DNA of 64,000 bases. Source: Eledone cirrhosa (Eukaryota). Below, piece after piece: positions 5,315-61,134 of the stretch. The notes beneath the pieces were generated by a model. The model had not been told where the DNA came from. It did not search any database and saw nothing but the letters and a program-made list of their open reading frames with translations. Made by a program: the position numbers and the translations under genes. Each line of letters opens with the position of its first letter. Within the stretch, counting starts at the first letter, position 1. Location: contig OZ024742.1 of the NCBI GenBank assembly GCA_964016885.1, positions 112,592,001 to 112,656,000 on the forward strand, given 5' to 3'.

Positions 5315-5590
<276 letters not shown>

Positions 5591-6906
5591 TTGACTCTGA
5601 GGAAGGATACAAGTATTCGGGCGTTCTGGAGGCTGATGGCATAAAGAACAAAAAAATGAAGGAATTGTTAAGAACTGAATACATTCGTAGAGTAAGGAGC
5701 GTATTGAAGTCACATCTGAACAGCAGAAATGCCATAAGCGCAGTAAATTCCCGAGCTGTGTCTATTATTAGGTACAGTGCGGGAATTCTGAGATGGAATG
5801 TTGCTGAACAAAAAGAAATGGATAGGAAGACTAGGAAGCTATTGACTATCTACAACATGTTCCACAAGAGGAGTGATGTCGATAGACTCTACCTAAGGAG
5901 ATCTGAGAGTGGAAGAGGTCTTATCAGCATAGAGGACTGTGTTCAGATGGAGAAAAACAACCTACACAAATACGTGACTGATAGTAAGGAGCCAATGCGC
6001 AGAACTGTACTGAAGGAGGGGACAATAGGCCAGGGGATGTCCAAGGAGCAAATAACATCAAGGAGAAAGAGCAGCCTTCAGGAAAAATCCCTTCATAGTA
6101 CCTTCTTTGAGAAAACTGAATTTAGAGATCCACAGACATGGAACTGGTTGAGAAGAGGAGACCTCAAAAAGGCTACAGAAGGAATGTTAATGGCTGCGCA
6201 GGAGCAGGCCCTCAAAACGAAGTGGTTGAAACACCACATTTACAAGGAGGAGGCTAGCCCACTGTGCAGCATCTGTGGAGAGAGAGAGGAAGCTGTGGCT
6301 CACATTGTATCCGAGTGTAAACATCTAGCCCAGACCCACTATAAGGGCTGGAGACGTGATGGGCAGGGTGATCCACTGGCACCTGTGCAAAGTAAACAGT
6401 TTACCACATTCTGAGAAATGGTATGATCATAAGCCAGAGACGGTGATGGAGAACGATCAGGTGAAGGTGCTGTGGGATTTTAGGATACAGACGGACAAGA
6501 AACTGGAACACAATAGACCTGACCGGGTGGTTGTGGACACAGATAAAAGATCGTGTCTGATTGTGGATGTGGCCTGCCCATTCGACACGAGAGTGCAAGA
6601 GAAGGAGAGGGAGAAAATTAACCGATACCAGGACTTAACGTGGGAGTTAAAAAGGATTTGGAACTGCCATGAAGTCAAAGTGATCCCGATTATCATAGGC
6701 GCACTGGGGACTATCTCCAAAAGTTTCAGGGATGGTTAAAGAAAATTGGCCCCTTCACGCTTTTTGGAACGCTTCAAAAGGCATGCTTGCTGGGAACAGC
6801 AAGAACCCTCCGATACGTCCTGAATATCTGAGGCTGCAGGTAGTGGCTTGATATTCATTCCAACGGACTTTCCAGTTAACTAACATCAATGACTGAGATT
6901 CAAGGA

Positions 6907-10329: not shown

Positions 10330-13300
10330 TGCTACCAAAATCCAAAGGTGTCTGCTCCTATAACCGGCGGCTTCGGGTCGTTTCTGTCTCTGCGTCTTTG
10401 GAGAATCTGGGCAAACAGGACGTTTTTTTCCCGTCGTTGGGTAGGGTTTTTGGGGACCGCTTGTAAATTCACTACTCCCATGACACTTCTTCCACGAATC
10501 GTACAAATACGAACTATGAATACGATTGCCTTCCCTCTACGAAAGCAATGCAAAGCAACAGCGCTCCTACCGCTATGGCTCTACAGACTGCTCCCGCAGT
10601 AGTCCCACTCTTCAGACGAAGGAAGGAATTGAGGGTGGCGTGCTGGAAAGTCCGAACACTTCGTGATGACGGTGTCCAGGCACTTACAATGAAGGCTCTG
10701 CACAGGAACTGCGTTAGTGTCGCTTGCTTTTCTGAAGTTCGACTTTCCGATGTTGGTCATCTTCCGATCAAAGTTCCTGGTGAGAACATCTCCTAACACG
10801 TATACCATAGTGGGGTGACTGACAACAGGGCCTTCACGGGGTTGCTGTAGCGCTCAGCCCCGACGCGCAAGCGGCTCTGCCGGCGTGTCAGCCGATCTCA
10901 CACCGACTCGCACTGGTTCGATTGAAGGGTCAAATCTCCAACGTCAGCGTAATTTCCGTTTACGCTCCCACACTCAGAGCGGACGAGGCGGACAAGATGC
11001 AGTTTTATGCCGACCTCCGAACAACCGTGGATGGCGTTCCCTCCAGTGATGTTCTCAATGTCGCTGCGGACTGGAATGCGCGGACGGCCGGCTGATGATA
11101 CAACACGGCATATTCTAGGACATTTCGCCATAGGCGTACGCTGTGACAATGGTGAACGGCTCGTGTCCTTCGCGGATGCCAATCGTCTTATCGTCCCCAA
11201 CACCCGGTTTCAACATTCTCGGTGTCACGTCGTCACGTAGCGATCCAATGACGGAAGAACGGCCAATCAGATTGACTACATCCTGGTCACATGTCGGTGA
11301 GCCAGCTCAGTAATGGACTCGCGTGCGTATCGGGGGGGGGTTACAAATACGGGCAGTGAGCATGGTACCGACCATACTCTTGTTCGACCAACCCTTCGTC
11401 TGCGGCTGCGGGCGAAACCTCCTCCCATGCGCCAGAAAAGGATCGATATCTCGCGATTCAAGCTCGATGTTGGAAATGCTTTCCGGCTAGAGCTGCGAAA
11501 CTGATTCCAAATGCTGAGTAACGAAGTGGAGCAGCAACCGGAGCAGGAGTGGAACGCGCTCAGGGTGGCGACGGTTGAGGTGGCCAGGGAGCATCTCGGG
11601 CGATCCAAATACGCCATCGGGACTGGATCTCCGGCGGCACTCTTGAACTTGCGGAGAGGGCGAGTGTAGCCTGACTCGAGCGTGCACCCAATATTCGAGA
11701 TATCCGACGTCGCACATCTCGGGCTATTCGGGCCGATCGGAATGCAGACTGGCGCGAGTTTGCGGAGCAGACACAGAGGGCAGCAGGCTGTGGTGACTCG
11801 CGCAAGCTCTACCAACTGGGGAAACGGGCCAGCCGAAGCAGTACGGGTATCAGCGAGACGATTTGTGATCGGAACGTTCATTACGAATCTTAATGACCTA
11901 CTAGTCCGGTGGCGGAGCCATTTCTGCGAACTCCTCAAACACCCGCCACCATCCACGCCAACCTACGTGCAGCCTTCCGGAGAAGAATACGGGCGCAGCA
12001 CTGCCATCCAACGGTTAGGAGGTATGTGGTGTTCTGACTCATCTCCGGAACAACAAGGTGCCGGGTGAGGATGGCGTTCCATCTGAGGTCTACAAGGCAG
12101 AGCCTGATGTCTTCGCAGCTTGGCTCCACCGAGTCTTCTCCTCTGTGTGGGCGACGGAGCGGGTCCCTGGTGACTGGAGCGAGGCAACTCTCCTACCCTT
12201 CTTCAAAAAGAGCGACAGGTAACTGTGTTCCAACTACACGGGTATCAGGTTAATTGATGTTGCTGCAAAGACCTTTGCAATTATTCTGCTGAAGAGGTTC
12301 CAGCCCATCCCTGATGTCCGTACCCGTCCTTCTCAGGGCGGCTTCCGTCCGGGGAAGGGGTGCTTTGATAAAATATTCATTCTCCGCCGTGTCTTGGAAG
12401 AACGGTGGGCACATCAACACACCTACCGTCCTCTGCTTCATCGAATTTGCAGCTGCCTTCGACTCGGTAGCTCGGGAAGCACTATAGCGTATAATGCAGG
12501 CGGACGGCATCCCAGTGAAGCTGCTTCGTCTCATACAAGGCTACTTCCGGTCGACTCGGGCTCAAGTGAGGGTCTATGGTGGGGAGACGGGGTTGTTCGA
12601 TGTTGGGATCCGTGTTCGGCAGGGGTGTGCGCTATCGCCAAACCTCTTTAACGACGCCATTGACTACACTCTCAACACAGCGCTCCGGGATTACCCGGGT
12701 ATAGAGGTCAGAAGTGGGGTCGTGGTGACGGACCTGGCCTACGCGGATGACATCGTGCTGATGGGCGCTAACGGGACAGATGTACAACGTGCTCCCGAAA
12801 AGGCGCACACTGCAGCCACCGCTGTTGATCTACGAATCAATGCCGCCAAGTCGAAGATCATGAAGTCACTGGTCTCGCCTGATGCCTGGCAGCCAATATC
12901 TCACGAGAGCGGGGACATAGAGGGTGTGGAGTCCTTCGTTTACCTGGGCTCAACAGAGGTTCCAACGGGACTAGGCGCAGCCGAGGTCAAGCGTCGCATA
13001 GGTGCTGCCAGATCCGCGTTTGAGCGCCTCCAGCATTGTCTGTGGGAGAGAAGAGAGATCACCTTGGCGACCAAAGGGCGAATCTACCAGGCCGGCGTTA
13101 GCACTATCCTCCCCAATGGCTGTGAAACATGGCCTATGAGGGTAATCGATCAACGTGGGCTGGAGGTCTTCGACAATGACTGTCTCCGCCGCATTCTTCG
13201 CTGCCAACGCGCAGATCGGGTGCCTACCACCGGTCTTCGTCTTCGCCTGGATCTTCGACCTCTTCCTTCAGTGCTTCTGCAACGGCGCTTGAGATGGTTT

Positions 13301-13618
13301 GGTCATGCTGCCTGGTGCCCTGAGGGTGAGCTGATCCGCGATGTTCTCTTCCCACCTCCACTCCTTAACTGGCGCAGGCGCGTTGGCGGGCAGCTGAAGA
13401 CCTGGGCAACGACGATCAAAGAGGACCTCTCCGAACTCTCAGGTGCGCAGGAGATCAGCCTGCGCCGATGGAACCGTGACTGGCTCGCTATCTCCAGTGA
13501 CCTAAACCCGGGACCGTCGTGCGTGGGCTGCCGTGTTTCGGGATGCCGTCAGGACAAAGGAAGAAGCCTGCTCAATCCGTCCAGGGTGAATGTCGACACA
13601 AGTACAAGTACAAGTACT
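10330..13618 (+). mobile_element. Near-full-length RTE-clade LINE (APE endonuclease + RT), multiply frameshifted, (ACAAGT)n tail
   Basis: LRVACWKVRTL...CFSEVR APE start, NQIDYILV, GIRVRQGCALSPNLF, DLAYADDIV, RLRWFGHA. Tail acaagtacaagtacaagtac at about 13598-13618. GC-rich relative to its flanks. Confidence 0.9.
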
Positions 13619-15190
13619 TCGTGCTACGCAATTTATCGAGCAAATTTACTCCCTTATGCCTATTACCGATCCATGATCCTTAGGGACATAATTGAAAAGC
13701 AATTTATCCGTACCAAAAATGTATAACCATATGGCATCTCGCTGCCTTCGTTCAATTTTTTTATTATTATTATAATTTTTTTTTTTTTTACAATTTGCAG
13801 ATCAACATATGTTTTTCTATAGTATATTCGGAGAAATTAAGCGAAAGAGAGCGAACGTCAGAAATTGAAGGACAACACATTTGACGCAATTTCTTGGCAC
13901 CGAACATATGGTACATAAATTCCCTTCGGTGAGATGTCAGTTCAGAGTTCATAGAGCTGGTGTATATTTTGCAAAGATTTTGATCTCATGCCCGAAATTG
14001 TCTTACATTTCTCAGATTATATGCATGCTCCCAGAATTTTAAGATATATAGATATTTTTTTTAGCAGTCATTAAGATTAACATTTGCGGATGACGCTGGT
14101 TAGTGTTAAATGAGTCATTTCATTTACAAGCTAATTATGTATGTACAGAGGAATTACTGTGAAGAGATAGTCAAATCATAGTATGAACAAATAACTTTTC
14201 TTGTTTTTTTTTTTTTACGAGATCTCCTTTCAGATGGATCTATGATCGAACTTTTTCACATTATTATTACCTTGATTCACTTTTCGAAACTTATTTCTTC
14301 TATATCTCTATTACCTAATATATCATCCCTTTTAAAACGAGGGAATGTGAGGAATCAAACAAGTTAAATTATATATTTCTAGTGGCATATGTATATTCGC
14401 AAAGACCCTGTATTTCGCAATACCTAAGTACGAGATAAATTAATCTACTATATTACTGAAAATCCTACTATAGTTTTAAACTCAGATGAAATTCGAATTA
14501 AATCTGGAAGAATTAATGGAGCTGTTAATATATATTCCATGGAAAGAATCTTTACTACTTTCATCATACAGAACATTTTTGAAAATTGCCCAACGTAGAT
14601 CATAAATCCATTCGGTTATTCGTAAACAGATATAAAAGAAACGCGCGCTAATTATACAGTCTAGAATATAATATAGAGAAATTACTGCATTTGTAACAAT
14701 GGCCAAAATAATTTACTTCTAATGTGATTTATGATAACATTATCAAAGAATAAATATAACGGAAACTATTTCATTATTTATTATAATAAAGACTATATTG
14801 TGATCTTTTGTTGAAATATCAAGCAGAATGATACATTATTTTCTGAGGGCAAGAGGATTTCTATTCATATGAAAACAATTTCAATCAATATAAGAAATTC
14901 AAATGAATATTTTGTGGTTTTTATTCTATATTATTATTTTCATATTTGATTGCAAACAACATAGTATTGTATAATATATATATATCGTATTACTACAATT
15001 TTATATTAGTATATGGATGAAGCGAGCACGTGTGTGTTTTGTATCTGAGTGTGTTTCCATATATTAAGGGTTAATCATAAACTAAGCTTTCCTTCTTATA
15101 TAAATGTATATGAAACATTGAATAACACACGCACATAAGCTTACATACATACATGCGTACATACATTCATGCATACATACATACACACAC

Positions 15191-18154: not shown

Positions 18155-18211
<57 letters not shown>

Positions 18212-18412
18212 TAAATGTTGAAGGGAGAAGCACACTTCTGACACATATTGCCATGGGATTTGACCCTCCTTCAGAGGTACAATTCCGGGCAAGATTGTTT
18301 GTGCAATACATGCAGTCATCTATGCATACCGGTCTCCCATCTCCACACCACCGACGTTGTCCACGTGGAAAGCAATAGCTGATATAGCTTGACACCAGGA
18401 ATGTTGCAACTC

Positions 18413-18543
18413 ATTTGCATAGAGCGTGAGTACGTACCGGTTCAACGGAGACGATAAAAACAAATAACGAAACGAAATTAAATTTCGTTTCGTTTGTAAC
18501 TCACTTTTGTATGACTGACGCTTAAACAATTGAGTTAAAAATG
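18413..18543 (-). repeat. Inverted partial monomer at the 5' end of the 466-bp array
   Basis: Reverse complement of the monomer segment catttttaactc...ctctatgcaaat. Joins the direct array through a TG microhomology at 18542-18543. Confidence 0.9.
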
Positions 18544-21500
18544 AGTTACAAACGAAACGAAATTTAATTTCGTTTCGTTATTTGTTTTTATCGTCTCCGT
18601 TGAACCGGTACGTACTCACGCTCTATGCAAATTAGTCTGCCAACTACTAATTTTCATAGAAAAAGCATATAACGATATGTGCTTTTACGATTCTCTAGAA
18701 AGGCCGGAAGATGGGTAAATATTGCTGATGAGATGTAACAACATCGAAACTAGTCCAATATTCCTTGTCTGGCTTTCTGGAGAATAGAGGAAAGGTGTTT
18801 CCTCAAAAACCAGTATGACTCTAAAAACCGGTTTGTCTGTGTGTTTACATACAGAATAGCTGGACACTCACAGTAAAGTGACCAGTGAAAAACTCGGTAC
18901 ATCTACATATGTACACGTGTGTGTATTCATATGCATACTAGTATTTCAGTATACATATGTGGATGTACATTTTTAACTCAATTGTTTAAGCGTCAGTCAT
19001 ACAAAAGTGAGTTACAAACGAAACGAAATTTAATTTCGTTTCGTTATTTGTTTTTATCGTCTCCGTTGAACCGGTACGTACTCACGCTCTATGCAAATTA
19101 GTCTGCCTACTACTAATTTTCATAGAAAAAGCATATAACGATATGTGCTTTTACGATTCTCTAGAAAGGCCGGAAGATGGGTAAATATTGCTGATGAGAT
19201 GTAACAACATCGAAACTAGTCCAATATTCCTTGTCTGGCTTTCTGGAGAATAGAGGAAAGGTGTTTCCTCAAAAACCAGTATGACTCTAAAAACCGGTTT
19301 GTCTGTGTGTTTACATACAGAATAGCTGGACACTCACAGTAAAGTGACCAGTGAAAAACTCGGTACATCTACATATGTACACGTGTGTGTATTCATATGC
19401 ATACTAGTATTTCAGTATACATATGTGGATGTACATTTTTAACTCAATTGTTTAAGCGTCAGTCATGCAAAAGTGAGTTACAAACGAAACGAAATTTAAT
19501 TTCGTTTCGTTATTTGTTTTTATCGTCTCCGTTGAACCGGTACGTACTCACGCTCTATGCAAATTAGTCTGCCCACTACTAATTTTCATAGAAAAAGCAT
19601 ATAACGATATGTGCTTTTACGATTCTCTAGAAAGGCCGGAAGATGGGTAAATATTGCTGATGAGATGTAACAACATCGAAACTAGTCCAATATTCCTTGT
19701 CTGGCTTTCTGGAGAATAGAGGAAAGGTGTTTCCTCAAAAACCAGTATGACTCTAAAAACCGGTTTGTCTGTGTGTTTACATACAGAATAGCTGGACACT
19801 CACAGTAAAGTGACCAGTGAAAAACTCGGTACATCTACATATGTACACGTGTGTGTATTCATATGCATACTAGTATTTCAGTATACATATGTGGATGTAC
19901 ATTTTTAACTCAATTGTTTAAGCGTCAGTCATACAAAAGTGAGTTACAAACGAAACGAAATTTAATTTCGTTTCGTTATTTGTTTTTATCGTCTCCGTTG
20001 AACCGGTACGTACTCACGCTCTATGCAAATTAGTCTGCCTATTACTAATTTTCATAGAAAAAGCATATAACGATATGTGCTTTTACGATTCTCTAGAAAG
20101 GCCGGAAGATGGGTAAATATTGCTGATGAGATGTAACAACATCGAAACTAGTCCAATATTCCTTGTCTGGCTTTCTGGAGAATAGAGGAAAGGTGTTTCC
20201 TCAAAAACCAGTATGACTCTAAAAACCGGTTTGTCTGTGTGTTTACATACAGAATAGCTGGACACTCACAGTAAAGTGACCAGTGAAAAACTCGGTACAT
20301 CTACATATGTACACGTGTGTGTATTCATATGCATACTAGTATTTCAGTATACATATGTGGATGTACATTTTTAACTCAATTGTTTAAGCGTCAGTCATAC
20401 AAAAGTGAGTTACAAACGAAACGAAATTTAATTTCGTTTCGTTATTTGTTTTTATCGTCTCCGTTGAACCGGTACGTGCTCACGCTCTATGCAAATTAGT
20501 CTGCCTACTACTAATTTTCATAGAAAAAGCATATAACGATATGTGCTTTTACGATTCTCTAGAAAGGCCGGAAGATGGGTAAATATTGCTGATGAGATGT
20601 AACAACATCGAAACTAGTCCAATATTCCTTGTCTGGCTTTCTGGAGAATAGAGGAAAGGTGTTTCCTCAAAAACCAGTATGACTCTAAAAACCGGTTTGT
20701 CTGTGTGTTTACATACAGAATAGCTGGACACTCACAGTAAAGTGACCAGTGAAAAACTCGGTACATCTACATATGTACACGTGTGTGTATTCATATGCAT
20801 ACTAGTATTTCAGTATACATATGTGGATGTACATTTTAAACTCAATTGTTTAAGCGTCAGTCATACAAAAGTGAGTTACAAACGAAACGAAAATTTAATT
20901 TCGTTTCGTTATTTGTTTTTATCGTCTCCGTTGAACCGGTACGTACTCACGCTCTATGCAAATTAGTCTGCCCACTACTAATTTTCATAGAAAAAGCATA
21001 TAACGATATGTGCTTTTACGATTCTCTAGAAAGGCCGGAAGATGGGTAAATATTGCTGATGAGATGTAACAACATCGAAACTAGTCCAATATTCCTTGTC
21101 TGGCTTTCTGGAGAATAGAGGAAAGGTGTTTCCTAAAAAACCAGTATGACTCTAAAAACCGGTTTGTCTGTGTGTTTACATACAGAATAGCTGGACACTC
21201 ACAGTAAAGTGACCAGTGAAAAACTCGGTACATCTACATATGTACACGTGTGTGTATTCATATGCATACTAGTATTTCAGTATACATATGTGGATGTACA
21301 TTTTTAACTCAATTCTTTAAGCGTCAGTCATACAAAAGTGAGTTACAAACGAAACGAAATTTAATTTCGTTTCGTTATTTGTTTTTATCGTCTCCGTTGA
21401 ACCGGTACGTACTCACGCTCTATGCAAATTAGTCTGCCCACTACTAATTTTCATAGAAAAAGCATATAACGATATGTGCTTTTACGATTCTCTAGAAAGG

Positions 21501-24500
21501 CCGGAAGATGGGTAAATATTGCTGATGAGATGTAACAACATCGAAACTAGTCCAATATTCCTTGTCTGGCTTTCTGGAGAATAGAGGAAAGGTGTTTCCT
21601 CAAAAACCAGTATGACTCTAAAAACCGGTTTGTCTGTGTGTTTACATACAGAATAGCTGGACATTCACAGTAAAGTGACCAGTGAAAAACTCGGTACATC
21701 TACATATGTACACGTGTGTGTATTCATATGCATACTAGTATTTCAGTATACATATGTGGATGTACATTTTTAACTCAATTGTTTAAGCGTCAGTCATACA
21801 AAAGTGAGTTACAAACGAAACGAAATTTAATTTCGTTTCGTTATTTGTTTTTATCGTCTCCGTTGAACCGGTACGTACTCACGCTCTATGCAAATTAGTC
21901 TGCCCACTACTAATTTTCATAGAAAAAGCATATAACAATATGTGCTTTTACGATTCTCTAGAAAGGCCGGAAGATGGGTAAATATTGCTGATGAGATGTA
22001 ACAACATCGAAACTAGTCCAATATTCCTTGTCTGGCTTTCTGGAGAATAGAGGAAAGGTGTTTCCTCAAAAACCAGTATGACTCTAAAAACCGGTTTGTC
22101 TGTGTGTTTACATACAGAATAGCTGGACACTCACAGTAAAGTGACCAGTGAAAAACTCGGTACATCTACATATGTACACGTGTGTGTATTCATATGCATA
22201 CTAGTATTTCAGTATACATATGTGGATGTACATTTTTAACTCAATTGTTTAAGCGTCAGTCATACAAAAGTGAGTTACAAACGAAACGAAATTTAATTTC
22301 GTTTCGTTATTTGTTTTTATCGTCTCCGTTGAACCGGTACGTACTCACGCTCTATGCAAATTAGTCTGCCTACTACTAATTTTCATAGAAAAAGCATATA
22401 ACGATATGTGCTTTTACGATTCTCTAGAAAGGCCGGAAGATGGGTAAATATTGCTGATGAGATGTAACAACATCGAAACTAGTCCAATATTCCTTGTCTG
22501 GCTTTCTGGAGAATAGAGGAAAGGTGTTTCCTCAAAAACCAGTATGACTCTAAAAACCGGTTTGTCTGTGTGTTTACATACAGAATAGCTGGACACTCAC
22601 AGTAAAGTGACCAGTGAAAAACTCGGTACATCTACATATGTACACGTGTGTGTATTCATATGCATACTAGTATTTCAGTATACATATGTGGATGTACATT
22701 TTTAACTCAATTGTTTAAGCGTCAGTCATACAAAAGTGAGTTACAAACGAAACGAAATTTAATTTCGTTTCGTTATTTGTTTTTATCGTCTCCGTTGAAC
22801 CGGTACGTACTCACGCTCTATGCAAATTAGTCTGCCCACTACTAATTTTCATAGAAAAAGCATATAACGATATGTGCTTTTACGATTCTCTAGAAAGGCC
22901 GGAAGATGGGTAAATATTGCTGATGAGATGTAACAACATCGAAACTAGTCCAATATTCCTTGTCTGGCTTTCTGGAGAATAGAGGAAAGGTGTTTCCTCA
23001 AAAACCAGTATGACTCTAAAAACCGGTTTGTCTGTGTGTTTACATACAGAATAGCTGGACACTCACAGTAAAGTGACCAGTGAAAAACTCGGTACATCTA
23101 CATATGTACACGTGTGTGTATTCATATGCATACTAGTATTTCAGTATACATATGTGGATGTACATTTTTAACTCAATTCTTTAAGCGTCAGTCATACAAA
23201 AGTGAGTTACAAACGAAACGAAATTTAATTTCGTTTCGTTATTTGTTTTTATCGTCTCCGTTGAACCGGTACGTACTCACGCTCTATGCAAATTAGTCTG
23301 CCCACTACTAATTTTCATAGAAAAAGCATATAACGATATGTGCTTTTACGATTCTCTAGAAAGGCCGGAAGATGGGTAAATATTGCTGATGAGATGTAAC
23401 AACATCGAAACTAGTCCAATATTCCTTGTCTGGCTTTCTGGAGAATAGAGGAAAGGTGTTTCCTCAAAAACCAGTATGACTCTAAAAACCGGTTTGTCTG
23501 TGTGTTTACATACAGAATAGCTGGACATTCACAGTAAAGTGACCAGTGAAAAACTCGGTACATCTACATATGTACACGTGTGTGTATTCATATGCATACT
23601 AGTATTTCAGTATACATATGTGGATGTACATTTTTAACTCAATTGTTTAAGCGTCAGTCATACAAAAGTGAGTTACAAACGAAACGAAATTTAATTTCGT
23701 TTCGTTATTTGTTTTTATCGTCTCCGTTGAACCGGTACGTACTCACGCTCTATGCAAATTAGTCTGCCCACTACTAATTTTCATAGAAAAAGCATATAAC
23801 AATATGTGCTTTTACGATTCTCTAGAAAGGCCGGAAGATGGGTAAATATTGCTGATGAGATGTAACAACATCGAAACTAGTCCAATATTCCTTGTCTGGC
23901 TTTCTGGAGAATAGAGGAAAGGTGTTTCCTCAAAAACCAGTATGACTCTAAAAACCGGTTTGTCTGTGTGTTTACATACAGAATAGCTGGACACTCACAG
24001 TAAAGTGACCAGTGAAAAACTCGGTACATCTACATATGTACACGTGTGTGTATTCATATGCATACTAGTATTTCAGTATACATATGTGGATGTACATTTT
24101 TAACTCAATTGTTTAAGCGTCAGTCATACAAAAGTGAGTTACAAACGAAACGAAATTTAATTTCGTTTCGTTATTTGTTTTTATCGTCTCCGTTGAACCG
24201 GTACGTACTCACGCTCTATGCAAATTAGTCTGCCTACTACTAATTTTCATAGAAAAAGCATATAACGATATGTGCTTTTACGATTCTCTAGAAAGGCCGG
24301 AAGATGGGTAAATATTGCTGATGAGATGTAACAACATCGAAACTAGTCCAATATTCCTTGTCTGGCTTTCTGGAGAATAGAGGAAAGGTGTTTCCTCAAA
24401 CACCAGTATGACTCTAAAAACCGGTTTGTCTGTGTGTTTACATACAGAATAGCTGGACACTCACAGTAAAGTGACCAGTGAAAAACTCGGTACATCTACA

Positions 24501-25116
24501 TATGTACACGTGTGTGTATTCATATGCATACTAGTATTTCAGTATACATATGTGGATGTACATTTTTAACTCAATTGTTTAAGCGTCAGTCATACAAAAG
24601 TGAGTTACAAACGAAACGAAATTTAATTTCGTTTCGTTATTTGTTTTTATCGTCTCCGTTGAACCGGTACGTACTCACGCTCTATGCAAATTAGTCTGCC
24701 CACTACTAATTTTCATAGAAAAAGCATATAACGATATGTGCTTTTACGATTCTCTAGAAAGGCCGGAAGATGGGTAAATATTGCTGATGAGATGTAACAA
24801 CATCGAAACTAGTCCAATATTCCTTGTCTGGCTTTCTGGAGAATAGAGGAAAGGTGTTTCCTCAAAAACCAGTATGACTCTAAAAACCGGTTTGTCTGTG
24901 TGTTTACATACAGAATAGCTGGACACTCACAGTAAAGTGACCAGTGAAAAACTCGGTACATCTACATATGTACACGTGTGTGTATTCATATGCATACTAG
25001 TATTTCAGTATACATATGTGGATGTACATTTTTAACTCAATTGTTTAAACGTCAGTCATACAAAAGTGAGTTACAAACGAAACGAAATTTAATTTCGTTT
25101 CGTTATTTGTTTTTAT
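18542..25116 (+). repeat. Tandem array of about 14.1 x 466-bp monomers, each with a hammerhead ribozyme (non-LTR retrozyme-like)
   Basis: Period 466 (ORF track repeats every 466 bp, with one +1 indel near 20891). Only scattered substitutions. Ends in (TA)n at 25116-25137. Confidence 0.95.
18718..18762 (+). ncRNA. Type I hammerhead ribozyme, first of 14 copies (CUGAUGA at 18725, 19191, 19657, 20123, 20589, 21056, 21522, 21988, 22454, 22920, 23386, 23852, 24318, 24784)
   Basis: AAUAUUG-CUGAUGA-GAUGU AACA ACAUC-GAAA-CUAG-UC|CAAUAUU. 7-bp stem I, 5-bp stem II, palindromic minimal stem III, GUC cleavage after 18755. Stem I can be extended by attctctagaaaggccgga / tctggctttctggagaat. Confidence 0.9.
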
Positions 25117-25137
25117 ATATATATATATATATATATA

Positions 25138-25283
25138 GGAACCAGTAAGACCCCGACAGCTGAGCTCAAGCCGTTTCGACGGCTAATTCGGTCTTACTGG
25201 TTCCTATTACCCACTCTACTACCCCAAGTATTGAGTACTTTGGTGCGTTATGGTCCACCAGGTTCCTTACCACATTTCGTTCG

Positions 25284-25285
<2 letters not shown>
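25138..25285 (+). mobile_element. Family A PLE-like fragment with inverted head
   Basis: Opposite orientation to 2744-2935, with (TA)n on both sides. Confidence 0.6.
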
Positions 25286-25357
<72 letters not shown>

Positions 25358-25360
<3 letters not shown>

Positions 25361-25515
25361 AACCAGTAAGACCCCGACAGCTGAGCTCAAGCCGTCGAAA
25401 CGGCTTGAGCTCAGCTGTCGGGGTCTTACTGGTTCCTATTACCCACTCTACTACCTCAAGTATTGAGTACTTTGGTGCGTTATGGTCCACCTGGTTCCTT
25501 ACCACATTTCCTTCG

Positions 25516-25518
<3 letters not shown>
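25358..25518 (+). mobile_element. Family A PLE-like fragment with inverted head
   Basis: Fold-back aggaaccagtaagaccccgacagctgagctcaagccgt / acggcttgagctcagctgtcggggtcttactggttcct, with (TA)n on both sides. Confidence 0.6.
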
Positions 25519-25552
<34 letters not shown>

Positions 25553-25867: not shown

Positions 25868-26940
25868 TCAACATCCCTGATCAGCAAAACCTGCCCTTTT
25901 CAGAAAACGCACTGTACTAATAGGAAATGTATCATATGTAAGGTAAGCCCCCGGATAAACAGTAAAACTAGAAACGTAGTCTATAGCATAAGATGTACAG
26001 AGGGTACTTGCAGAAACATGACAACAACATACATAGGCGAGACAGCTCGTAGCATAAGTGAAAGGATAGACCAACACTGGGGGGAACTAAAAGGACGAAT
26101 AAAACGGGTCAGTACTATACTAAAATGCCAGACAACAACACGACGGTAACATAGACAACATGGAAATTAGAATAATATCTAAACATAGAAATGAGCCAGC
26201 AGATAGGCAAATCAGAGAGGCCAGTGAAATAGAACTTAGAAGGCCAAGACTAAACAGAAAGAATGAATAGAATAACAACAACACCCAAACAAACAACACT
26301 GACCTAAGAGAAGTATAAATAAATAAATATATAAATAAATAATTAAATACATACACAAGCACACTAACAACAAACACATATAAACACACACTAGTAAAGA
26401 TAGAATATGTTAACCGATACACAGTCACCCAATCACCAACACACATCAAACAAAACACTATACACACACGCAAACGCATGCGCAAAGAAGACAACATAAA
26501 ATAAAAAAACAAACAAATAAATAAATAAATATATAGACAGACTAAATAAAAATGGCGTAGACATACAATGTAACGGGAGGAAACAATAGCACCGCCGACG
26601 ATGTTGCAGATTTGCAACGAAAGAACTTTGATAAACTATATATATGTGTTTGTGTCTATATTGTATCTGTATTATTACCAAATCCCGCCGAGGTTGACTT
26701 TGCCTTTCATCCTTACGGGGTCGATAAAATAAAGTACCAGTAATGCACTGGGTAATTGCTGGCCTTGTGCCTAAAGTAGCAACAAGTATATTGTATCTGT
26801 ATTATTTTTGACCGTTGGTCAGTCAATGGCAACATTAAGGACCGAATAAATGAGATTACCGATATAAAAGACACAGAAGCGAAAAGCGAAAACCAATCAA
26901 ACAGTGAGTGTGTTCTGTTATTAATTCTGGCAATATTACA
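25868..26940 (+). mobile_element. PLE 3' fragment: GIY-YIG endonuclease (frameshifted) plus 3' repeat with decayed HHR (family C)
   Basis: CIIC...NVVYSIRC...YIGETARSISERIDQH, continuing in another frame as RQIREASEIELRRPRLNRKNE* (stop near 26270). The 3' region is homologous to 51475-52045 and 59025-59280. Confidence 0.85.
26677..26786 (+). mobile_element. Family S SINE, 5'-truncated, with 20-bp TSD
   Basis: TSD tatattgtatctgtattatt at 26657-26676 and 26787-26806. The paralogous PLE copy near 51868 lacks the insertion. Confidence 0.9.
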
Positions 26941-27261: not shown

Positions 27262-28220
27262 TATGAATGTATATATAGGATAGTTGGCAATATGCCTTAT
27301 GCTTAATCAAAACAATTTGGAAGAACATACGCTATCAGTTTAAAAGTAGTGACTATGTCAGTTACTTCTTTTCGACGAAAGAACGGAGAGAAGCTGACAG
27401 TCTGTTTCCGCTGGTTGGCGTTCATCGGAGCGACGTACTGCCCTGCTTTCGCCGAACATTATATAAGCTAGATTCTTATAGAATTCCAGTAATAATGAGG
27501 AGCTGATTATATAGAGCGATTGCCGGTCCAGCAAAAACTAGGTATTACGTTTGGTGCTCTGAAATAACGATGTATACCTGTATGTATAGCATAGTTGCCA
27601 ATATACCGTATACTTAATTGAAAACATTTAGAAGACCATACGCTATCAGTTTTAAAATAGTGACTATGTCATTTACTTCTTTTTCGGCGAAAGAAGGGAG
27701 AGAAGCTGACAGTCTGTTTCGCGCATGTTGGCGTTCATCAGAGCCACGTACACGGCTGCTCTCGCCGAACATTTTAGTAGCTGGATTCTTATAGAATTCC
27801 AGTAATAACCAGGATCTTATTATAAAGAGCGATTGCCGGTTTCGCCAAAATTAGGTATAACGTTTGGTGCTCTGAAATAGTGATGTATACATGAATGAAT
27901 GTATAGTATATTTGGCAATATACCGTAAGCTTGATTAAAAACATTTAGAAGACTATACGCTATGATTGTTCCGGGAATCGCTCTGTATAATCAGCTCCTG
28001 ATCATTTTTGTAATTCTATAAGTATCCGGCTTCTATAATTTTCGCCAACCAGCGTGAAACAGATTCTCAGCTTATCTCCTTTCCTTCGCCGAAAAAGAAG
28101 TAAGTGAAATACTTTAAAACTGATAGAGTATGGTCTTCTAAATGTTTTTAATTAAGCACAAGGTATATTGCCAATTATACTATACATGCATTGATGTATA
28201 TATCGGTATTTTAGACATCA

Positions 28221-48537: not shown

Positions 48538-49217
48538 AACGAAGAAATTTTGGTAAGGAACCAGATGGACCATAACGCACCAGAGACCTCAATACTTTGG
48601 GTAGTAGAGTGGGTAATAGGAAAAATTATGACCGCGACAGCAGAGTTCAAGACGTTTCGACGGCTATTTCTGGACCTTTTAGTTGTTATAGGAATCTGTT
48701 GTGTCTAGGTTTGAATTTAATGCTCTTAACCAGGTGGAAAAGGTCGTTCTCGAAGGGTGAGAGCATAGGTTTCAGAGGGGGAGATTTGTAGGTATTGAAT
48801 CCTAATCTTTCCTTGGTGTCGAAGTCCTGATTTTCGCGGTATCAATCGTAGAAAAAAGTTATACATCTTAGACTTTTCGCAAAAAGGTCGATTTTTTGCG
48901 TGAGCACCCGGAGGTAAAGAGTTCTCGGTGGAACTGGGATGTTCTTGGTGGAGAAGTCGATGTTGTGTTTTCGCATGGTGCGGGTGAAGAGACTTGAGCT
49001 GGGTGGAAAAGTCGGAATATTGCATGGTAGGGTCGGAAAGTGTTCTACTACGGAGATAGGTGCTAAATAACGAAGGAATTGTGGTAAGGATCCAGAGGGA
49101 CCATAACGCACCAGAGTACTCAATACTCAGGGTAATAGAGTGGGTAATAGGAAAAAGTATTGGTCCAGAAATAGCCGTCGAAACTGCTTGAGCTCTACCG
49201 TCGGGGTTATACTTTTT

Positions 49218-49220
<3 letters not shown>
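48538..49220 (-). mobile_element. Family A element with two direct terminal repeats (48538-48675, 49068-49160), an internal segment and an inverted head (49160-49220)
   Basis: Both repeats match 2744-2870. Internal minus reading DLFAKSLRCITFF / ISPSETYAL weakly resembles a PLE ORF N-terminus. (TA)n on both sides. Confidence 0.55.
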
Positions 49221-49251
<31 letters not shown>

Positions 49252-59304: not shown

Positions 59305-61134
59305 AACCGTATAACATATTTTTCGTTCCCCGTTTCTAAGTGTCATTTCATAGTTTCTTATATCCCATTATTATTTAAAAAAACACTATTATTTAATCAG
59401 AAGTCTGGGTTTGTGGTCAGGAGTTTCGAAATGTTCATATTTTTCGAAATGTTCATATTTTTCAAGAAAAAACACATTTTAAAAAAATTAATCAGTTCAT
59501 ATAATTAAATCAACAGAGTATACATTTATTGTATTACACAAGCTTATCAAAAGCAAACAAGAAAAAAACAAATAACACTTATAAAGCAACTTATACACGT
59601 CAGAAATGACTGGATTCCTGGATTTGTGCTTGTAGTCCAGGTCGCATTCGCGCACTAGCCCCCAGATATATTATCCCCCATCATTTTATCATTGTAATGG
59701 CCCTGGTACCTCCGCTCTATCTATTTCACATCTTGGTGGAATCGCTCGCCTTGTTCTTCTGAGTAGGCGCCCATATTGTCCTTGAACATTTCCAGGTGAG
59801 CGTCCATCATATGGAGTTTAAGCGACACCCTGCATCCCATGGCGCCAAAAGCCTTTATAAGATTCTGCACCAGTTGCTGGTAGTTTTAAGCTCTGTAGTT
59901 GCCCAGGAAGCCCTTAACAACTGCCTTGAAACAGTTCCATGGTGTTCTCTCAATCCTATTGAGCTTATTGTAGGACTCGGTAGACACAAACATCTTCTTT
60001 ATCTGAGGTTCAACAAAAACTCCACCTTTGATTTTGGCCTCAGATAACTTGCGCAAGAACTCAAGAATGTACTTAAAAGCGGCTGATTCTTGGTTGAGAT
60101 CCTTCACAAACTGCTTCATCAACCCCACCTTAATGTGCAGTGGAGGCATGAGCACAATCCTAGGACCAACCAGTTGATCCCACATGATGATCCGGGTCCC
60201 AACTACAAATTGCGTTCGCTGGGGTCCAGTTCTTTCTTTTATAGTGGTCAGAGGTTGCTCTGCTGTCCCCAAGGCAGAGAAAGTATTGGAATTTTATAAA
60301 GCGTACTTGGAGTCCAAGCAGGAAAGCCACCACCATCTTGAAGTCTCCAATGATTTCCCAATTGTACTGGTTGTATTGCAGAGCTTCCAAGAGGACATTC
60401 ACACTGTAGTAATCTTCCTTCAGACAGACTGAATGAGCTAGGGGAAGTGTCGGGAACTTGTTTCCACTGTGGAGGAGGAGGACAGCCTTCAAACTTGTGG
60501 TGGAGCTGTCTATAAATAGCCGCCCCTCCTTGGACGCAAACGGCACCCAATAACGTCAAACAGTCCAGACACGTCAGGGCATAAGCAAAGGTCATACCTA
60601 AGAGTGTAAAAGCCTGAGAAAGTTTCGTGTCGATTTCTCGCACTTTACTCCTGCACTTCCTCCTTGACCAAGTTCCACTGCTTCATCCTGGAGATGAATA
60701 GCTCTTCATTGGACTTGGTCAGACCAATATTCCTGACAAAGTCATTGACTTCTGGTTGGCTTCAGAAGTGAGGAACTTTTTCTGGTACCTCAGGCAGGTA
60801 ATTCAAGTCCTCAGCATCCATCTCCTCCTCTTCATCAGAATATTTGTCTTGGAAAATAAATTTGATATGCAATACAAAATAAATATTGGAAAGGGAAATA
60901 CATATTTAAATAATATAAAAGAACACTAATCATACTAATGAAAATTCGTGCTTAAAACACAACTTACCCTTTATTCAGGGTGCGAAAATCCAGTATCAAT
61001 AAATCTCTTTAATCAACTTTTTAACAATTTTATACTTTATTGCACTTATTTAATTTTATGTTGGTATTAACCTTTATTTTATGAATTTAATTTAACCTGA
61101 AACATAGAGACAAAAATGTTTTTGTTACACGGTG
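59305..61134 (-). mobile_element. Chapaev3-like (CMC superfamily) DNA transposon relic with frameshifted transposase
   Basis: LFIDSSTTSLKAVLL.HSGN, GDFKM, PPLHIKVGLMKQFVK, LSEAKIKGGVF and SEEQGERFHQD motifs. Imperfect TIRs (a/c)accgt(a/g)taaca; TAA on both sides as putative TSD. Family assignment is from recollection of these motifs. Confidence 0.75.

Follow-up and report, generated by a model that had tools for sequence, protein, structure and literature searches.

The window analysed here is a stretch of 64,000 nucleotides from Eledone cirrhosa (assembly GCA_964016885.1, contig OZ024742.1, positions 112,592,001 to 112,656,000 of the forward strand). It contains a tandem array of 466-bp units, each carrying a type I hammerhead ribozyme motif, with a short inverted arm of the same repeat on one side and a (TA)n run on the other (Table 1). 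The array is likely to be a dispersed hammerhead repeat that was inserted by the enzyme of a Penelope-like element (PLE) through priming on two strands at two sites, probably from a circular RNA. The two-arm, fixed-end anatomy known from PLEs, which a first-pass annotation of these letters had missed, is the most informative feature. Positions within the unit are numbered from q1, the first base after the predicted hammerhead cut.

The hammerhead repeat and its family

The 45-nt hammerhead consists of stem I, CUGAUGA, a 5-bp stem II with an AACA loop, GAAA, CUAG, UC and stem I', and contains the core CUGANGA / GAAA / UH. The first-pass annotation had described 14 units with an invariant and complete hammerhead in each. 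The copy number and period agree with the TRF result and the ribozyme is letter-identical in 14 of 14 units, whereas the remainder of the unit is not invariant: 11 columns, all outside the ribozyme, vary among the 13 full units of this locus. The cut predicted in the first unit was recovered, and the rule of one cut every 466 nt holds save for one step of 467 nt between 20619 and 21086. Shuffled sequences gave 0 matches to the hammerhead pattern against the 14 observed. Rfam, proposed earlier as a check, gave no match at gathering score; Hammerhead_HH9 was matched at 37.3 bits against a cut-off of 52 (E = 1.7e-7).

Across 191 sampled full units, the core is intact in 190 (the unit finder itself requires part of it), the cut triplet is GUC in 106, GUU in 84 and GUA in 1, and a pair swap in stem II is always coupled on both sides (135 A-U, 56 U-A). 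Ten variants chosen from two families, which are related sequences and represent few events rather than ten, have 95% of the stem cells paired, with two-sided changes in 6 of 14 pairs as against 0–1 in slid controls. Helix III, a single pair capped by a palindromic tetraloop, never varies across the compared variants and is uninformative for covariation. The fold of the whole unit (z = -9.3 against shuffles) is common to a sister family, with two-sided changes in 25 of 94 pairs (8 units), and the extendable stem I of the first-pass annotation corresponds to a predicted extended stem I (z = -5.0). Judged from these sequence comparisons, the motif is real and under structural constraint, and the continuing constraint on the ribozyme suggests that cutting matters. 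By fold energy, a double hammerhead formed by two neighbours gains 11.8 kcal/mol over two separate ones and falls 3.0 kcal/mol short of the unconstrained fold; a dimer of adjacent hammerheads is favoured in silico. This agrees with the earlier proposal of dimers formed through a palindromic stem III. The term minimal used with it does not apply, as the definition of PMC4209133 makes the motif a canonical animal one whose palindromic helix III is weak. Helix III resembles that of the axolotl HHR_Amex1, which has one pair and a palindromic tetraloop and is dimer-dependent (PMC7229834; here and below, PMC7229834, PMC7761336, PMC8557442, PMC11167929, PMC2837043 and PMC2220036 stand for excerpts of these articles).

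A genome-wide pattern search for the family returned 9,494 matches, with 0 in the control. The unit has a GC content of 0.36 and a longest ATG open reading frame (ORF) of 56 aa; an ORF with reverse transcriptase (RT) and GIY-YIG endonuclease, which marks autonomous PLEs, is absent from it. With tandem units that carry an intact type I hammerhead, no coding capacity, GC below 50% and many dispersed copies, the array is by its features of the non-coding, dispersed non-LTR (long terminal repeat) retrozyme type, a known kind, as the first-pass annotation had held. Like the metazoan non-LTR retrozymes of PMC7229834, it has a single type I hammerhead in each unit, copies dispersed in their thousands, a fold with a high degree of pairing and co-occurring PLEs, and its target duplications exceed 4 bp. 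Expression, cleavage and circles have been shown for retrozymes in that account, whereas for the present family they are predictions from sequence. Cervera and de la Pena (2020; PMC7229834) have reported lengths of 150–450 bp for animal retrozymes, and a 2026 preprint has given consensus lengths of 51–972 bp in 35 species, no mollusc among them. The monomer, thought unusually long at first, is ordinary by the latter range, and the family also shares with the retrozymes of the preprint a link to PLEs and a variable array length. Neither a two-arm anatomy in retrozyme arrays nor a cephalopod retrozyme was found in a literature search over titles and abstract openings, to which the supplements of PMC7229834 and of the preprint may add. 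Newt satellite 2, the Schistosoma repeats and the cricket pDo500 are likewise hammerhead satellites with compensatory changes (PMC2837043, PMC2220036). Newt satellite 2 has a promoter of small nuclear RNA type, and the unit studied here has an octamer-like motif, ATGCAAAT, as a putative promoter.

The sister family was first met in the flanks of sampled loci and has 24,602 pattern matches genome-wide. Its units of 420–516 bp (L151–L170, e.g. L155:845–5000) have other stems on the same core, a GUA cut triplet and U-U at the base of stem II. With some 34,000 motif matches between them, the two families form a repeat class of considerable size in the genome. The word ribozyme is never used in one octopus repeat annotation that was checked. 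The ATGCAAAT motif may be a promoter octamer or, since it sits in a conserved RNA hairpin, no more than one strand of that hairpin.

Table 1. Coordinates (positions in the window) of the array, its parts and its neighbours.
Feature	Position	Strand	Remarks
Old dispersed repeat, flank outside the retrozyme	18210..18412	+	74-83% identical to other copies; cut off at inverted-arm junction
Inverted second arm	18409/18413..18543	-	q213 to q343-347; 135-bp remnant
Direct arm	18537..25116	+	TRF period 466, 14.1 copies, 99% matches; q248 to fixed long end q302
ATGCAAAT motif	18625..18632	+	q336-343; common to sister family; intact in 158/191 units
First type I hammerhead	18718..18762	+	Predicted cut after 18755
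Tail between the two fixed 3' ends (unit 1)	18983..19057	+	q228/233 to q302; conserved helix strand and hairpin
Predicted extended stem I of second hammerhead	19157..19250	+	Alike in each unit
Hammerhead copies 2-8	starts 19184, 19650, 20116, 20582, 21049, 21515, 21981	+	Identical
Four-unit internal duplication	21136..24400	+	1864 bp; 1401 bases identical at lag 1864; <=467 at other lags tested
Hammerhead copies 9-14	starts 22447, 22913, 23379, 23845, 24311, 24777	+	Identical
(TA)n run at long end	25117..25137	.	Usual target of the family
Two short two-arm insertions, other family	25135-25288, 25356-25520	.	One-short, one-long end rule
PLE protein C-terminal fragment	25874..26315	+	89-95% identical to intact L143 ORF; not joined to array

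Two-arm insertions with fixed ends

The anatomy was compared in 72 insertions, namely the studied locus and 71 others from three sets: best matches, matches in the order of contig C1 (the first 100 of the 9,494) and partial-query matches. Before counting, single BLAST pieces of <85% identity and an extra internal piece at L027 were set aside, and three split loci were merged to one event each. Two arms are present in 53 of the 72 insertions and are divergent, pointing outward, in 53 of 53. The outer 3' ends of 125 arms fall at q301–303 (long end, 65 arms) and at q222–235 (short end, 55 arms), with 5 atypical. Long and short ends are paired in 47 of 48 classifiable two-arm events (p = 1.7e-13 against 0.5) and in 15 of 15 events of the set taken in chromosome order. 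The fixed ends run into TA repeats in 107 of 120 arms. Target duplications of about 11–17 nt, in line with the more than 4 bp known from non-LTR retrozymes, are present at five loci with informative flanks (L035, L038, L043, L090 and L117; 50 pairs examined); they are undefined in pure TA runs, and none occurs at the studied locus. Arms have a median length of 1.33 units and reach about 31 units, and the tail between the two end sites measures about 70 nt. The homologous two end sites recur in 20 fetched loci of the sister family, where seven two-arm loci pair them one each as judged by eye. Loose ends running into TA at the same three positions are also seen in an outside data set, although this may derive from the sample used for the assembly. 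The imperfect TA flanks of L032, L036, L045, L047 and L103 resemble short target units repeated on both sides, and look as if the target ends had been re-copied several times. A possible surplus of inner ends of long arms close to the short site (q213–235) was not used, since it comes partly from the picking of loci by partial query.

Coding elements of this genome have the same anatomy. L143 and L145 contain long PLE-like ORFs and have divergent arms with one short and one long end in TA, and two further families in the genome follow the one-short, one-long end rule. The PLE label of L143 and L145 is based on their Atlas neighbours, which carry HTH_animal, GIY-YIG and RVT_1, and on motifs that we take to be those of PLEs; a Pfam scan of three long ORFs of such elements found no relevant family, and a PDB search gave one weak RT match (E = 0.18). 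Published PLE insertions have an inverted 5'-truncated copy, a one-sided tail of 30–40 nt and a (TA)n bias (PMC8557442). The anole Poseidon PAc has been reported to cut and extend both target strands, with two internal RT starts that delimit the tail (PMC11167929). The present family likewise has an inverted truncated copy, a one-sided tail and targets that are AT-rich or microsatellites. Because the same two-arm, two-end anatomy is seen in coding PLEs and in the published footprint, priming by a PLE enzyme at two fixed sites is very probable, and the ends that bound the tail (q228/233 and q302) would be the start sites of reverse transcription. With endonuclease-positive (EN+) PLEs (PMC8557442, PMC11167929) the family has in common its divergent arms, the pair of fixed 3' ends, targets rich in AT and a type I hammerhead upstream of those ends. 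Unlike these, it is a retrozyme with no ORF, has a tail of about 70 nt, and both of its arms can be multi-unit. Neither the divergent arms nor the fixed paired ends figure in the PMC7229834 account as excerpted. The tail anatomy of two-arm insertions is already known for PLEs, just as the ribozyme array alone is of a known kind. The fixed paired ends are a nucleotide-level footprint of the PLE machinery and name two candidate RT starts on a small non-coding RNA, and the retrozyme unit would suit the existing in vitro PLE assay as a compact substrate. In L1 twin priming, both target strands also prime and give an inverted and a direct part; its second site is variable and the event occasional, whereas this family uses two fixed sites and most of its insertions have two arms.

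The mover of animal retrozymes and the origin of their multimers are stated to be open in the literature, and the paired ends bear on both. A link to PLEs and a circle-based amplification of one unit were proposed in 2020 (PMC7229834), and a review of that year has noted that no conserved motif points to a helper element of animal retrozymes (PMC7761336). The 2026 preprint has backed the PLE link by homology to pseudo-LTRs (pLTRs) and leans to local amplification of satellite type. It argues from co-occurrence and from pLTR homology in vertebrates, whereas the present case is built on an insertion footprint, with no homologous pLTR found.

At the studied locus, the direct array starts at 18537 (18542 in the first-pass annotation); the element continues further left as the inverted arm, which was overlooked. 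The two arms share 7 nt at 18537–18543. The long end is canonical, with q302 running into TA at 25116. The outer end of the inverted arm differs from the short end of the family and abuts the old dispersed repeat via a short microhomology. As this arm stops at q343–347 against a shortened old repeat with a common motif, most of it was likely lost in a later deletion. An 1864-bp block is doubled inside the array, so that some of the 14 units stem from duplication of DNA. With its left arm probably mostly deleted and an internal duplication, the locus is a less pristine example of insertion than, e.g., L044. Rfam miRNA matches at 18413–18633 were rejected as merely reflecting the inverted-arm hairpin.

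Template, proposed mechanism and alternatives

Arms cross the cut site in 102 of 120 cases, with 307 crossings in total and both arms crossing in 32 events, counts that are inflated by the picking of loci through hammerhead or near-full-length matches. The inner ends are scattered over q9–464, and a single one of the 123 falls 3 nt or less from the cut, where 1.8 would be expected. With 307 crossings and no clustering of inner ends at the cut, linear monomers opened by cleavage cannot have been the principal template. Some arms at first seemed to begin right at the cut site; this was a BLAST query-edge artefact that was gone on remapping, and gives no evidence of cleavage in vivo.

Unit differences have a median of 1.07 bases within loci and 16 between loci, and of 100 variants seen within loci, 6 are found again at a second locus. 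There are 31 haplotypes among 37 loci, spread as whole units. Thirteen loci have full units in both arms, which are identical in 8 and 1–6 bases apart in 5. Private haplotypes with identical arms are found at L044, L037 and L113; L044 has 6+7 full units, with 0 differences between the arms and 10 to the nearest sampled locus. Because loci are uniform inside and distinct from each other, and both arms have the same private haplotype, the data fit a one-unit bottleneck followed by amplification, as with a circle. A step through a circular RNA template is modestly favoured. Four runs of the outside data set gave contigs, two of them a single self-closing contig of 495/496 nt, which a tandem repeat gives as well.

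The proposed cycle would begin with transcription of the arrays, after which neighbouring hammerheads would pair via the palindromic helix III and cut out monomers. A host ligase would close these, and a circle on its own would be hard to cut again, as the helix III of its one hammerhead is 1 bp long. The PLE RT-endonuclease would then cut an AT-rich target in a staggered fashion, and each 3' end would prime at one of the two sites and run a variable number of rounds. The two cDNAs would be joined at the centre, leaving back-to-back arrays whose length may afterwards change through gains and losses of DNA. Of such later changes, the four-unit duplication is seen at the studied locus, and a deletion that removed most of its left arm is probable. 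In general terms, animal retrozyme arrays have an even chance of being direct fossils of twin-primed rolling-circle reverse transcription, with the one-long, one-short pairing as a general and asymmetric law of PLE integration and the tail as the signal for recognition by the helper that these retrozymes have been said to lack. Two obligatory and different start sites would lie on the circle, one per strand, and each cDNA would run for several rounds.

A number of observations count against insertion from a circle by a PLE enzyme. Transcription, the cutting of monomers and the closure of circles are steps that we infer, and the unconstrained fold mispairs the hammerhead core. Nine inner ends at q9–21 (6.6 expected for q1–25) leave room for some run-off at cleaved ends followed by trimming. 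The two arms differ from each other more than from the nearest other locus at L040 and L048 (2 of 13), and at L024 by one base. One arm is all that is apparent in 19 of 72 events, 4 of which hide a second arm of 9–17 nt. The studied locus lacks the short end, and 5 events, itself included, have an atypical end. The sole short+short event, L031:2486–4945, has arms of different haplotype, its inner piece and right arm being of another subfamily haplotype than the left array; two templates or a nested event are possibly involved. Among the few PLE families sampled, none sharing sequence with the unit was found, and the unit matched PLE loci solely in an AT-rich stretch. In 0 of 129 arm records is there a same-strand PLE protein match within <=1.5 kb upstream. 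In addition, the anole PLE substrate is mainly unprocessed RNA, with no reads that ended at the cut site (PMC11167929), and the 2026 preprint reports that 1 of 9 frog retrozyme dimers was cleaved in vitro.

The last two points also favour the alternative closest to the proposed cycle. Since unprocessed RNA is the main substrate of PAc (PMC11167929), an uncleaved linear multimer also fits here: PLEs would mobilise a read-through transcript with a slow or dormant hammerhead, like that of the 8 frog dimers that stayed uncleaved, and long arrays would form by unequal crossing over. The partial tandems formed by coding PLEs in this genome, the 4-unit duplication inside the studied array and a median arm of merely 1.33 units are in keeping with such a course, which we regard as possible and somewhat doubtful. 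Against it stand the uniformity of units within loci as compared with their differences between loci (1.07 vs 16), the multi-unit arms with the same private haplotype on both sides (L044, L113 and L037) and the continued constraint on the ribozyme, which suggests that cutting matters.

A second alternative takes the unit for the pseudo-LTR of a coding PLE, whose 5'-truncated insertions later multiplied as satellite DNA and not through an RNA cycle of the unit. Homology between pLTRs and retrozymes in Xenopus has been reported in the 2026 preprint, which discusses this model, and truncated two-arm pLTR insertions are common in this genome. However, a truncated pLTR arm cannot run from q1 back into q466 of the same unit, as 102 of 120 arms do (both arms in 32 events), no ORF adjoins any arm, and it is as whole units that 31 haplotypes have spread among 37 loci. 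The pseudo-LTR model is unlikely for the arrays and may account for the origin of the family. Some retrotransposon RTs jump end to end between templates. If the RT copied cleaved linear monomers in this manner, multimers would arise in the absence of a circle, and a one-unit bottleneck and passage over the cut site would likewise result; as all 14 junctions in the studied array are letter-perfect and inner ends are not enriched at q1, template jumping is considered very unlikely, and the haplotypes provide no test of it, since their unit finder requires a clean junction. It is most unlikely that the family is a satellite mobile at the DNA level with the hammerhead as a passenger, for although rolling-circle transposons and extrachromosomal DNA circles also have tandem structure and TA targets, the pair of divergent arms, with its two different fixed 3' ends, and the target duplications match the RT-encoding PLEs of this genome and covariation at the RNA level spans the whole unit.

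Neighbouring elements and other features of the window

The PLE-like family of L141–L150, to which the protein fragment downstream of the array belongs, has 24,106 first-look candidates with ORFs of 950–1300 aa; it forms partial tandems and divergent full-length arms and is missed by Pfam. This neighbouring PLE family was rejected as the partner of the retrozyme, with which it shares anatomy and not sequence. Other hammerhead-bearing families were rejected likewise, their anatomy being alike and their sequence not. Further hammerhead families occur at L094:5343, L038:3567, L100:1350, L024:6566 and window 40467, with palindromic helices III of TGCGCA, TATATA and TATGTA, and the one at L094 precedes a 500-aa open frame. 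Retrozyme arms abut the tail or start-codon regions of other PLE-like elements at L043:4506, at L094 and in the right flank of L042; the junction at L043 has a clean target duplication.

The short two-arm element listed in Table 1 also occurs at 2741–2937 and 49067–49222. It is abundant, and its two fixed end sites are 81 nt apart. At 48976–48710 (minus strand), a frame 39% identical to a PLE-like N-terminus comes after one of the copies, and the element is likely to be the truncated end of another PLE family.

Elsewhere in the window, a 313-bp repeat at 27267–27963 (2.2 copies, 84% identity) lacks the hammerhead pattern of the family. Broken frames at 59886–60682 resemble what we take to be a DNA-transposon-like protein, and a Pfam match was absent in the one frame scanned. 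Broken RT frames of non-LTR retrotransposons are present at 26–1864, 5557–6739 and 12223–13726, with RVT_1 matches at 26–553 and 12488–13723 and a weak zf-RVT match at 5557–6411.

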